DNA of 42,047 nt from Candidatus Sungbacteria bacterium RIFCSPHIGHO2_01_FULL_50_25 (lineage in GTDB: Bacteria; Patescibacteriota; Minisyncoccia; Sungbacterales; HO2-52-23), in contig MHQD01000026.1 of assembly GCA_001822215.1 (NCBI GenBank), forward strand, positions 1 to 42,047, read 5' to 3'. Under the pieces are notes generated by a model. That model saw nothing but the letters and a program-made list of their open reading frames with translations, searched no databases and was not told the origin of the DNA. This document shows positions 6,071-42,047 of the stretch, in pieces (position 1 is the first letter of the stretch; each line of letters starts with the position of its first letter). A program made the position numbers and the translations under genes.

Positions 6071-6118
6071 CACCTCCTTTTCTACTCTATATTATATCAT
6101 AAATACAGAATTTTGCAA
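6071..6118 (-). promoter_or_regulatory. promoter plus SD for the 5800..6066 gene
   Basis: Read on the minus strand: TTGCAA (6118-6113), a 16-nt spacer, then an extended -10 TGaTATAAT (TATAAT is plus 6091-6096, TG is plus 6098-6099), then SD AAAGGAGGTG (6071-6080). Confidence 0.55.
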
Positions 6119-6166
6119 ATATTGCGCTTTTGCTTTGATTTTCAAGCCCGAAAGAAAAAAACATGA

Positions 6167-6204
6167 ATGTATCTATCCTACGCTATAGCGTAGGATAGAT
6201 ACAT
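6167..6204. repeat. 38-bp perfect palindrome, copy 1 (variant A)
   Basis: ATGTATCTATCCTACGCTATAGCGTAGGATAGATACAT. Its two 19-nt halves are exact reverse complements. It lies 50 nt downstream of the polA stop. On the minus strand it is followed by TCATGTTTTTTT. Confidence 0.95.
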
Positions 6205-9507: not shown

Positions 9508-9545
9508 ATGTATCTATGCTGCGCTATAGCGTAGCATAGATACAT
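9508..9545. repeat. 38-bp palindrome, copy 2 (variant B, one G:T mismatch)
   Basis: ATGTATCTATGCTGCGCTATAGCGTAGCATAGATACAT. It is the same element as 6167-6204 with C11>G and G28>C, plus one unpaired change (A14>G). It is followed by GCAATTTTT on the minus strand. Confidence 0.95.
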
Positions 9546-22397: not shown

Positions 22398-23777
22398 TTA
22401 TTCACTAAAAATTTTTTCCCGTATCAACCTAATTTCTTCTTCCAACTCGATGTTTTTCTTCAGCTCCTCCCCAATTTTTTCACAAGAATGAATCGCGGTC
22501 GTATGGTCCCGGCCCCCGAACCTGTCTCCGATAGACGGGTACGAAAATTTAAGTTCGTTGCGCAAAAGGAACATGGCGATCTGGCGCGGCTTCACAAAAT
22601 CTTTTTTTCGGGAACTCGTCATCAAATCTCGCTCCTTAATATCATAAAAATCAGATACCGATTTTATTATTTTTTTTGCGGAAACGAATTTTTTAGGAGT
22701 GAGAGCGTGAGTAACAAGGAGTTTTTCAACCTGTTCTTTGGTGACGGGGGTGTTTGATATTTTCGCGCTCATAACCACCTTATTCAAAACCCCCTCAAGC
22801 TCGCGGATATTCGTTTTTATTCGCTCCGCGATGAGGCGGAGCGCGTCTTCGGGGACCAAAACCTTTTTTTCGTCGGCTTTTGTCTTGAGGATGAGAAAAC
22901 GCGTTTCCACGTCCGGAACCCCGATATCCGCGATCATTCCCCCTTCAAAACGAGATTTTAAGCGTTCTTCCAGTGTCGCGATTGCCTGTGGCGGGCGATC
23001 GGAAGAAATGATAATCTGCTTGTTTTTTTCATAGAGCGCATTAAACGTGTGAAAAAACTCCTCCTGCATTTTCTCAGTCCGAGCAATAAATTGAATATCA
23101 TCCATGATTAATAAATCTACCGCCCGGTATTTTTCTTTCAACCGGTTCATCTCCTGGTTTTTCAGCGCATCAACAACCTCCCCCATGTATTTTTCTGACG
23201 AAAGGTATTTAACCTTTTTCTGGGGAAATTGTTTCAGTATTTCGTTTCCGACCGCCTGAATAAGATGCGTTTTCCCGAGTCCGACCCCGCCGTAGATAAA
23301 AAACGGATTATACCCGATTCCGGGGTTTTTAATTATCGATTGCGCCGCCGCATACGCCAGCTCGTTGAAAGAACCGACAATAAAATTCGTAAACGAGTAG
23401 CGCGGGTTTAAATTTGTCTCCGGGTCAACAGAAAGTTCCCGAATCGATGCGTCGTCCGACTGGGAAGGAGCGGCGGCGGATGAACGCCGTTTTTTCGCCT
23501 GGTCTTTTTGTATGGACGACAGGCCGCGCTCCGGGCGCGCAATAACATACGAAACATCTTTTATTTCAGGCGTGATTTCCCGCAGCGCGTGGAGTATGGA
23601 CTTGTGGTATTTGTTTTGGAGCCATTCCTTTACAAATCCATTCGGAACATATACAGTCGCAAGGCCCGCGTCCACCCCCATAATACCGGTTTCTTGAAAC
23701 CACGTTATGAAATTCGGCCGCGAGATCGCTGGTTCAAGTTTCGCAAGTGTCGCTTGCCAAAGTTCGTTACGTTCCAT
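22398..23777 (-). CDS. dnaA: chromosomal replication initiator protein DnaA
   Basis: 459 aa. It has the AAA+ Walker A GGVGLGKTHL, Walker B DLLIMDDIQF and a C-terminal DNA-binding domain (FGGRDHTTAIHSCEKI). Confidence 0.97.
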   Translation of the reverse strand: MERNELWQATLAKLEPAISRPNFITWFQETGIMGVDAGLATVYVPNGFVKEWLQNKYHKSILHALREITPEIKDVSYVIARPERGLSSIQKDQAKKRRSSAAAPSQSDDASIRELSVDPETNLNPRYSFTNFIVGSFNELAYAAAQSIIKNPGIGYNPFFIYGGVGLGKTHLIQAVGNEILKQFPQKKVKYLSSEKYMGEVVDALKNQEMNRLKEKYRAVDLLIMDDIQFIARTEKMQEEFFHTFNALYEKNKQIIISSDRPPQAIATLEERLKSRFEGGMIADIGVPDVETRFLILKTKADEKKVLVPEDALRLIAERIKTNIRELEGVLNKVVMSAKISNTPVTKEQVEKLLVTHALTPKKFVSAKKIIKSVSDFYDIKERDLMTSSRKKDFVKPRQIAMFLLRNELKFSYPSIGDRFGGRDHTTAIHSCEKIGEELKKNIELEEEIRLIREKIFSE

Positions 23778-40986: not shown

Positions 40987-41157
40987 TTATATTTCTGGCA
41001 AAACACCGCGGCCGTAAGGCCGCGGGTGAATGCGAGCTCTGAGTCCCGACGAAGTCGGGACGGAAGAAATATATAGGCCGCCGGACGTTTTCGCGGCATA
41101 GAAGCGCACCGCGAAAACGGACGGAAAGAGTACGGAGTACCACGGCCGGAAGGCCGT
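40987..41157 (+). other. cluster of four GC-rich near-perfect hairpins (candidate structured RNA or REP/BIME-like cluster)
   Basis: H1 is 41003-41027, CACCGCGGCC-GTAA-GGCCGCGGGTG. H2 is 41042-41060, GTCCCGAC-GAA-GTCGGGAC. H3 is 41085-41118, an 11-bp stem CGTTTTCGCGG/CCGCGAAAACG. H4 is 41140-41157, CACGGCC-GGAA-GGCCGTG. A long-range 9-bp helix TATATTTCT/AGAAATATA (40987-95 with 41064-72) encloses H1 and H2. The GNRA loops exist only on the + strand. Confidence 0.35.
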
Positions 41158-41214
41158 GCGGAATCTATTTTTCGCGTATTCCAACAAGCGAATGCATTAA
41201 TACGTTATGCGGTA

Positions 41215-41260
41215 CGTCATGTATCTATCCTACGCTATAGCGTAGGATAGATACATGACG
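41215..41260. repeat. palindrome copy 3 (variant A), extended to 46 bp
   Basis: The core 41219-41256 is identical to 6167-6204. Flanking CGTC/GACG extend the perfect palindrome to 41215-41260. Confidence 0.95.
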
Positions 41261-41321
41261 GGTGGTGCGGATGAATTCGGCGCAAATCCCGTCAGGTGTC
41301 GCCACATAAACACTCATCGGT

Positions 41322-41900
41322 ATGCCTTCCTCCTATCGTCTGGGAAAAGAAGAAATAGTTCGTGCAATCCTCATGTCGCTCGGGGTTGCGGGGCTTGTTG
41401 TTGCCGCTGCCGCCGCGCCGAACGCAACGCTTCTTTTGAAGCCGCTCATTCGGAAAATGAATAGGCGGCCGATAGCGGACGATTCCCTGGAGCGGTCGCT
41501 CAGACGGATGGCGAAAAAGCGGCTTGTCGAATTTTCGGTGCGGAATGGAAAAACATATCTCCACATTACAGAAAGCGGAAGGAAAAAACTCAAGGAAATC
41601 GAGTTTGAATCAATGAAGATCGATATATCCGGATCATGGAATGGGGTCTGGACGGTTATTCTTTTTGATATACCGGAATCACGGAAAACCGCACGGGATG
41701 CCCTTCGGAGAAAATTAAAAGACCTCGGATGTTATCAATACCACAAGAGCGTTTTTGTTCATCCGGTATCTTGCGGAGATGAAATTGATTTTGTGGCTGA
41801 ATTTTTCCAAGTCGGGCGGCATGTCATTCATTTTGAAACGCGCTCGCTCGGAAACCAAGAACATCGCGCCCGGCGCTTTTTCGGGATCCGCGGCGCGTGA
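41322..41900 (+). CDS. PaaX-like protein (winged-helix N-terminal region plus PaaX/Cas2-fold-like domain)
   Basis: 192 aa. LRRMAKKRLVEFSVRNGKTYLHITESGRKKL is wHTH-like. WNGVWTVILFDIPESRKTARDALRRKLKDLGCYQYHKSVFVHP matches the W-x-G-x-W...(F/Y)-x-(I/V)-PE...R...L...G...SV(W/F)(I/V)-x-P pattern of the PaaX family. Confidence 0.65.
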   Translation: MPSSYRLGKEEIVRAILMSLGVAGLVVAAAAAPNATLLLKPLIRKMNRRPIADDSLERSLRRMAKKRLVEFSVRNGKTYLHITESGRKKLKEIEFESMKIDISGSWNGVWTVILFDIPESRKTARDALRRKLKDLGCYQYHKSVFVHPVSCGDEIDFVAEFFQVGRHVIHFETRSLGNQEHRARRFFGIRGA

Positions 41901-41901
41901 T

Positions 41902-41943
41902 CAATGTATCTATGCTACGCTATAGCGTAGCATAGATACATTG
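41902..41943. repeat. palindrome copy 4 (variant B), extended to 42 bp
   Basis: The core 41904-41941 is ATGTATCTATGCTACGCTATAGCGTAGCATAGATACAT, a perfect palindrome. Flanking CA/TG extend it. It starts 2 nt after the stop of the PaaX-like gene. Confidence 0.95.
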
Positions 41944-42047
41944 GGATTCTGGGGTGTTGGGCGGCGCTCGCGTGTTGTATCGTGATCGGAAGGTTTTGCG
42001 ACCGTTGCTTTGCGCGATTGCGAGCAGCACCGTGAGCGGGCACTGCA

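Follow-up and report, generated by a model that had tools for sequence, protein, structure and literature searches.

A palindrome-bracketed small PaaX-like gene in Patescibacteria: a probable self-contained protein/DNA-site module

PaaX, a phenylacetyl-CoA-responsive repressor of E. coli and Pseudomonas (PDB 8a39, 3l09; PF07848 + PF20803 + PF08223), has an N-terminal winged helix and a Cas2-like middle domain with a WDGKW motif. It represses its own promoter and binds a palindromic site; the E. coli operator, TGATTC-N27-GAATCA, spans 39 bp (PMC9493321). The REPtrons of Proteobacteria (REP sequences with a RAYT gene) have a different layout, a single gene flanked by its own palindromic repeat of a paralogue-specific type, with further solo copies in intergenic spaces, some of them at gene 3' ends. 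A locus with features of both is found near the end of contig MHQD01000026.1 of a Candidatus Sungbacteria genome. The whole contig, 42,047 nt on the forward strand, was analysed and is called the window here; it is contig C26 of the source genome (G000; 570 kb in 45 contigs, 89% complete). At this locus a gene for a 192-aa PaaX-like protein, mini-PaaX, stands between two long perfect palindromes. Sequence comparisons make it fairly probable that the gene and the palindromes form a self-contained module of a protein and its cognate sites, probably autorepressing, in which the Cas2-like domain reads the dyad, and that the module has been gained, lost and copied. No published description of a palindrome-bracketed mini-PaaX module was found in the literature. 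No paper was found that combines PaaX with Cas2, the ten literature matches ranked highest for PaaX with Patescibacteria do not mention PaaX, and pairing "perfect palindrome" with "Patescibacteria" returned only a LexA paper. The protein/DNA-site module is apparently undescribed.

The palindromes, the protein and their association

The initial annotation had described a 192-aa open reading frame (ORF) between two palindromes, and its coordinates and structure were confirmed (Table 1). The upstream palindrome is 46 bp with arms of 23 and the downstream one is 42 bp with arms of 21; both are perfect and have no loop. The gap from the upstream palindrome to the start codon is 61 nt. The downstream palindrome begins 2 nt past the stop codon, leaving a gap of 1 nt, and the palindrome-gene-palindrome unit is 730 bp long. 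The two palindromes have a 38-bp core in common, ATGTATCTAT(C/G)CTACGCTA on one side of the dyad and TAGCGTAG(G/C)ATAGATACAT on the other. Variants A and B have the same core apart from a mirrored exchange (C:G to G:C) at 9 bp from the dyad. The core pattern occurs four times in the window, as against none across 100 shuffles, and six times in G000 (C26 6167, 9508, 41219 and 41904; C41 7225; C23 540). All six copies are intergenic, two flanking the gene and four solo. Nearly all the differences among them are mirrored in both arms: C:G or G:C at ±9, a change at ±8 in the C41 copy, and changes at ±13 and ±14 in the C23 copy. The sole unmirrored change is at -6 in copy 9508.

The exact palindrome of G000 is absent from 40 relatives, and the association of gene and palindrome emerges only when each genome's own palindromes are examined. 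The PaaX_M family is present in 32 of 41 related genomes with up to 12 copies each. For 71 homologues from these genomes the best zero-loop palindrome near the gene was scored over 16-bp arms, with 13/16 or more counted as strong and 2000 random 240-nt windows of G000 as background. Strong palindromes were present upstream of 40/71 homologues (56%; Fisher p 5e-43) and downstream of 52/71 (73%; p 1e-62), compared with 38 of the 2000 random windows (1.9%). A scan with one genome per species and a single peptide pattern returned at least 584 relatives. The best 80 loci come from many Patescibacterial lineages; 59 of them have a strong palindrome, and most of the others have recognisable degenerate sites with centre and arm sequence common to both sides. 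The association elsewhere, which the initial annotation had proposed to check, is thus very strong and phylum-wide. The arm sequences are specific to each paralogue and the centre, GC-K-AT-M-GC, is conserved (C at -3 in 99%, A at -1 in 90%, T at +1 in 92% and G at +3 in 100%). The upstream dyad lies a median of 35 nt before the start codon and the downstream dyad a median of 43 nt past the stop codon. When 1.84 billion representative proteins were searched with a profile, 3,745 clusters matched at E <= 1e-10, and the best 150 of these matches are mostly about 180-200 aa long. No partner gene recurs beside the 150 cassettes examined, and likewise no transposase, recombinase or NTPase gene.

The mini-PaaX protein matches Pfam PaaX_M (PF20803) with E 1.7e-19 and 70.1 bits (cut-off 24). 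This is its sole Pfam match above cut-off, and the gene is the one PaaX_M gene of G000. The matches to Cas2 are weak and under cut-off (PF09827, E 0.006, 17.1 bits, cut-off 23.8; TIGR01573, 16.1 bits, cut-off 24.5), and the PaaX equivalog TIGR02277 scores 28 bits with a cut-off of 264.55. A winged helix (residues ~9-97) is followed by a Cas2-like ferredoxin domain (~105-187), and the protein ends at residue 192, right after this middle domain, without the PaaX C-terminal domain. The Cas2-like domain carries the family motif W-x3-W-x4-FDIPExxK...QKSVFV...DEIDF, and W106, D107, W110, F115, D116, P118, E119, R125, S143, C151, E154 and F157 are invariant or nearly so. Asp116, which is invariant, corresponds to the metal-binding Asp of Cas2 and is lost in E. 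coli PaaX, which has LLLSEGL where the mini-PaaX family has IIFDIPE.

An AlphaFold2 model built from 51 homologues (pLDDT 89.2, pTM 0.76) consists of a winged helix and then a ferredoxin-like domain. Its best fold match in the PDB is E. coli PaaX (8a39), the PaaX-like structures 3kfw and 3l09 also matched, and the winged-helix part gives weak fold matches to TubR and AspA. Alignment to E. coli K-12 PaaX with hhalign gave 90% probability, covering PaaX residues 55-172 of 316. A single-sequence search of the PDB gave no matches; with a sequence profile the best matches there were weak, among them TubR (E 0.009) and AspA, winged-helix proteins that bind centromeres. An N-terminal transmembrane helix was considered and rejected, the hydrophobic residues 14-38 being modeled as the first helices of the winged helix (pLDDT there ~66). 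The mini-PaaX sequence has no His-hydrophobic-His (HUH) motif. The initial description, a winged helix-turn-helix plus a PaaX/Cas2-like domain and no HUH motif, therefore holds. There is no Y1_Tnp match in mini-PaaX or anywhere in G000, and no Cas1 in G000. The annotated ORFs of the window include no paa gene; no genome-wide paa search was made.

Covariation of protein and site

When alignment columns were compared with site positions by mutual information, the strongest signals connected the centre of the site to the loop after β1 of the Cas2-like domain. Glu119, which follows FDIP, occurs with A-T at the dyad in 96 of 103 cases. Other residues at this position (N, Q, D, L) occur with a CTAG, GTAC, TCGA or ATAT centre in 6 of 9 (Fisher p 5e-5). 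Lys122 occurs with C at +4 in 65/77 and Arg122 with a base other than C in 19/22 (Fisher p 1e-9). On a maximum-likelihood tree at least three independent lineages switch at residue 119 and at least four at residue 122. In addition, most sites are self-complementary even at the innermost bases, which could not pair in a hairpin, an observation in favour of a symmetric dimer that recognises the DNA as a duplex. In Cas2 structures the β1 C-termini of the two subunits meet on the dimer two-fold axis, which fits contacts at ±1 to ±4. Of the two readings offered initially, the covariation of residues with central bases lends support to the one in which the palindromes are operators bound by a dimeric regulator.

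A mechanism can be proposed from these observations. The 192-aa protein is most likely a dimer with two-fold symmetry, joined through the Cas2-like domains, that binds the 38-bp palindrome as duplex DNA. Placed on the dyad, the β1-α1 loops (FDIPExxK) would recognise the conserved centre, and the paralogue-specific outer arms would be read by the two winged helices. The upstream palindrome, directly before the start codon, is most likely an operator for autorepression. The downstream palindrome would provide a second site, whose purpose may be looping, a roadblock or a boundary. Further sites would be the four solo copies, at least one of which would double as a transcription terminator. In the course of evolution intergenic sites would gain and lose the gene-plus-palindromes unit and the solo palindromes, and both would be copied from one such site to another. 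The arms would be held identical by a symmetrising process, which could be selection or a templated correction inside the palindrome.

The same arrangement is seen with other small DNA-binding proteins in relative G029. On its contig C18 an ArsR-type gene (43422-43706) is bracketed by its own perfect-palindrome family with at least nine dispersed copies. Each of two TrpR-like helix-turn-helix genes on the same contig (L109, 16637-16972; L110, 17408-17815) likewise stands between perfect palindromes of a dispersed family of its own; the centres of the two families are GACTAGTC and CTTTAAAG. No homologues of the bracketed ArsR (searched by tblastn) or TrpR-like genes were found in G000. This genome does have a second palindrome family, ATTCTCACATTCTTGAGAATGTGAGAAT (C4:8898, C6:258, C42:1738, C44:15610), related to the one that brackets the ArsR gene in G029. 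Bracketing of small DNA-binding genes by cognate sites looks like a general habit of the clade, and the ArsR and TrpR-like cases favour binding sites over enzyme-specific transposition.

Several observations weigh against a dimeric autorepressor and its operators. The downstream palindrome lies between mini-PaaX and the next gene, the convergent ksgA/rsmA, where it is unable to control a promoter, and the C23 copy likewise lies between convergent genes, parB and relA/spoT. A plain repressor-operator model fails to explain the bracketing of the gene because of these two copies. No sigma-70-like promoter was found beside the upstream palindrome. It would be uncommon for ordinary regulators to number up to 12 paralogues in a genome of ~700 kb, each flanked mainly by its own site. 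Few sequences with the minority states underlie the covariation. Lastly, mirrored changes between the two sites of one protein are unpredicted by protein binding alone. When the two copies were compared in 97 related upstream/downstream pairs, both mirror positions differed 147 times, compared with 56.8 expected if the arms changed independently, and 85 of these 147 double changes keep both copies complementary. The alternatives are selection on pairing and a templated process by which one arm is copied from the other. Such copying would resemble quasi-palindrome correction by template switching.

Turnover, competing explanations and surroundings

The G000 gene has orthologues in the same order in relatives. 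Genome G001, of the same genus, has one with 65% aa identity and the gene order orf287, orf118, DUF5663 gene, mini-PaaX, and the common order indicates that the G000 gene was vertically inherited. The palindromes of the G001 orthologue are recognisable at both ends and degenerate (11/16 and 14/16). The metagenome contig L198 has a syntenic orthologue with 83% aa identity and the same palindromes, perfect, with new mirrored variants; the single stretch matching G000 at the DNA level is 75% identical. By this comparison the palindrome is conserved beyond its surroundings in L198.

Elsewhere the backbone is conserved and the unit comes and goes. The 62-kb origin contig of G029 (C7) is collinear with the window and has three cassettes at other intergenic sites (uvrB/holA, pilB/ruvB and yidC/type IV secretion), where G000 has no PaaX_M gene, and two solo copies. 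G005 has a complete cassette upstream of tsaE, at the same intergenic position as the G000 solo copy 9508, and the cassette of G029 after holA has two solo palindromes as its counterpart in G001. The insert of ~130 nt that contains copy 6167 is missing in G001. A one-sided flank, nnnGGG, is common to five of the six G000 copies and argues for copying of a unit slightly longer than the palindrome and not for independent origin; three of the solo copies are bordered on their other side by an A-run, which reads as a T-run on the complementary strand. The number of paralogues ranges from 0 to 12 per genome, and recent within-genome duplicates are present. The same 38-bp sequence also occurs as solo copies in other contexts on foreign metagenome contigs. 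No target-site duplications are visible at the palindrome copies, and the spacer upstream of tsaE is too diverged from that of G002 to define insertion boundaries. Judged from gene order, the unit is evolutionarily mobile, having been gained, lost and copied between intergenic sites by some putative mechanism of spread. The initial annotation had proposed comparing presence and absence of the 730-bp unit in relatives; it is present in synteny in G001 and L198, with cassettes at other sites in G029 and G005. Its second reading, a mobile cassette that seeds palindromes, gains from the presence and absence of cassettes on a conserved backbone, from the solo copies in lineage-specific inserts and from the asymmetric flank, and loses its proposed kinship with REPtrons and IS200/IS605.

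Two observations on palindromes without the gene were made in passing. The 38-bp palindrome stands just after a gene for an S1-domain protein on L194 (7588-7625), L196 (4520-4557) and L195 (2904-2941). At least two related populations show this arrangement, one with variant B and another with variant A; G000 matches that gene weakly. On the foreign metagenome contig L195 (2904-3008) and after holA in G001 (L080, 5513-5614), two different long palindromes lie 30-70 nt apart with no gene between them.

The turnover could also come from a selfish mobile cassette like REP/RAYT, in which mini-PaaX nicks or cuts the dyad with its conserved acidic residues, or recruits a host enzyme, and so drives excision, insertion and copying. 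We regard this as unlikely. The G029 cassettes at syntenic sites that are empty in G000, the exchange of cassette and solo copies at tsaE and after holA, the insert around copy 6167, the one-sided flank, the variable copy number with recent duplicates and the assembly fork 26 nt past the downstream palindrome all fit it. The metal-position Asp116 and a hairpin or templated intermediate, which could account for the excess of mirrored double changes, fit it as well. Against it stand the vertical inheritance of the G000 gene in conserved synteny, the lack of visible target-site duplications and the low copy number (six per genome). To our knowledge no nuclease or recombinase activity has been described for the PaaX middle domain. 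The same presence and absence could result if old paralogues were lost differentially and repeats recombined in the ordinary way, and the like bracketing of ArsR and TrpR-like genes points to a property of binding sites and not of one enzyme. A bolder form of the idea, which we consider quite unlikely, is that the mini-PaaX dimer nicks or cuts the GC-K-AT-M-GC centre under the invariant Asp pair and that hairpin or templated intermediates keep the palindrome perfect and copy or excise the unit. If so, mobile elements would include a new class, autonomous and minimal, that relies on a protein of the Cas2 family and is widespread in Patescibacteria.

The palindromes might instead act mainly as nucleic-acid hairpins, such as terminators, mRNA-stabilising or processing stems or cruciforms, independent of protein and only incidentally beside the gene. 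All G000 copies give very stable RNA stems (-24 to -41 kcal/mol, z -6 to -10; the upstream palindrome, -41 kcal/mol, z -7.9), and the mirrored changes preserve pairing. Copy 6167 was flagged as terminator-like on both strands, and the minus strand has a T-run 3-5 nt past the stem at copies 6167, 9508 and C41. Such a role is very unlikely to be the main one. Neither gene-flanking palindrome has an adjoining U-tract or was flagged as an intrinsic terminator in the window scan, and the innermost bases, unpairable in a hairpin, are mostly self-complementary and covary with two protein residues. A phylum-wide tie to one protein family is not expected of generic terminators, and the ordinary terminators of G000 differ, having 3-5-nt loops and A/T-runs. 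We think it highly improbable that the module serves chromosome organisation or segregation, with a few origin-proximal palindromes being centromere-like or Noc/RacA-like and the gene lying among its own sites like parB beside parS. The window is indeed the oriC region (dnaA, dnaN, yidC). Four of the six copies are within ~18 kb of dnaA and a fifth abuts parB; the G029 origin contig holds three of its seven paralogues in addition to its two solo copies, and the weak profile matches to TubR and AspA point the same way. Many paralogues in other genomes are, however, off the origin contig, no NTPase partner gene recurs beside the cassettes, and twelve orthogonal paralogues in one genome are hard to fit to a single segregation role. 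The statistics for origin enrichment are rough binomial estimates on draft assemblies. G009 was tried as an origin test and rejected, its sequence start not being at dnaA. A further candidate role, the palindrome as a promoter, was also rejected: there is no sigma-70-like site, and a fixed-offset TANNNT is found in 14/79 upstream sites (18%).

Table 1. Positions in the window of mini-PaaX and of the copies of its palindrome
Feature	Position	Strand	Remarks
Upstream cognate palindrome, variant A	41215..41260	.	38-bp core 41219-41256 plus CGTC/GACG extension
mini-PaaX gene, 192 aa	41322..41900	+	winged helix and Cas2-like PaaX_M domain
Downstream cognate palindrome, variant B	41902..41943	.	core 41904-41941
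Solo palindrome copy, variant A	6167..6204	.	between polA stop and conserved promoter of small pre-holA ORF
Solo palindrome copy, variant B, one unmirrored change at -6	9508..9545	.	upstream of tsaE

The window is a replication-origin region with dnaA at 22398-23777. Its other genes are uvrB, holA, polA, tsaE, pilB, ruvB, ruvC, tyrS, a PBP gene, dnaN, yidC and a type IV secretion cluster. Past the downstream palindrome 104 nt of the contig remain, and the last 79 of them (41969-42047) are the reverse complement of the end of contig C10 (16378-16456). Beyond the fork C10 carries ksgA/rsmA and then a UvrD-like helicase gene, both on the minus strand. On the minus strand at 6091-6119 there is a near-consensus promoter, TTGCAA-16-TATAAT with TG and AAGGAGG, ahead of the 128-aa pre-holA ORF; it is kept in G001 and sits just past the palindrome-bearing insert. 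The initial annotation had suggested a regulatory role for the palindromes at the polA-tsaE flanks. This found no support, and copy 6167 looks like a bidirectional terminator. The C41 copy follows an ftsQ-like gene.

Rfam and tRNA scans of the window, C23 and C41 gave no matches. A large structured RNA may lie directly after the C41 copy, where about 1 kb of GC-rich sequence (C41 7300-8360) has no convincing ORF, reaches the gathering score of no Rfam model and gave no tRNA or tmRNA. The spacer that separates the upstream palindrome from the DUF5663 gene has four hairpins (40990-41170), GC-rich and with GNRA-like loops, that the syntenic spacer of G001 lacks. These could represent either a small structured RNA or a hairpin element that was inserted there.

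Relation to described systems

Patescibacteria have very few recognisable regulators, yet the mini-PaaX family has thousands of members. If the proposed protein/site module is correct, there is a recognition code, from residue 119 to the dyad and from residue 122 to base +4, on a Cas2-type fold that is not known to read DNA sequence. It would supply naturally orthogonal repressor/operator pairs. It would also bear on the origin, upkeep and spread of long perfect palindromes in reduced genomes. Whether a Cas2-like protein needs Cas1 in order to act on DNA repeats is a further question that it would touch.

Like Cas2 (PF09827), the middle domain is ferredoxin-like (β-α-β-β-α-β), with hhhFDI ending β1, QKSVF in the next strand and an invariant Asp at the metal position. 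Unlike Cas2, mini-PaaX falls under the Pfam and TIGR Cas2 cut-offs and is fused to a winged helix, in a genome without Cas1; we know of no base-reading role for the β1-α1 loop of Cas2. The C proteins of restriction-modification systems with their C-boxes, and the centromere binders TubR and AspA, are also small dimeric DNA-binding proteins with a palindromic or repeated site directly upstream of their own gene and orthogonal specificities among paralogues. They differ in that mini-PaaX has no gene for a partner enzyme or NTPase, and has a second site right after the stop codon and a Cas2-like domain. An integron cassette or Xer-dif module was rejected, no recombinase recurring beside the 150 cassettes and the sites being perfect palindromes without a spacer.

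The layout suggested to the initial annotation a REPtron or IS200/IS605 element. The lack of an HUH motif, and of Y1_Tnp in the genome, speaks against membership of either. The IS200/IS605 elements were rejected on further grounds as well, namely palindromes that are perfect and near-identical at both ends, as opposed to imperfect subterminal hairpins, and the lack of a transposase beside the 150 cassettes. The likeness to REPtrons lies in the combination of flanking and dispersed copies, seen also in G029 and G001. Unlike REPtrons, the mini-PaaX gene does not code for an HUH/Y1 transposase, the palindromes are perfect, loopless and 32-54 bp long, the solo copies are few and not hundreds, and no REPIN doublets were seen.

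The likeness to PaaX extends to the span of the site, the 38-bp core being close to that of the operator. The protein departs from PaaX in having no C-terminal ligand-binding domain and no paa linkage, and from E. coli PaaX in keeping the Cas2-type FDIPE and QKSVF motifs, which covary with the centre of the site. The site, unlike the two outer hexamers of the PaaX operator, is palindromic over the whole 38 bp, brackets the gene on both sides and is dispersed, and the family is multi-copy, with up to 12 members in a genome. In function the module partly resembles a PaaX repressor and in layout a REPtron, and it is a full member of neither.

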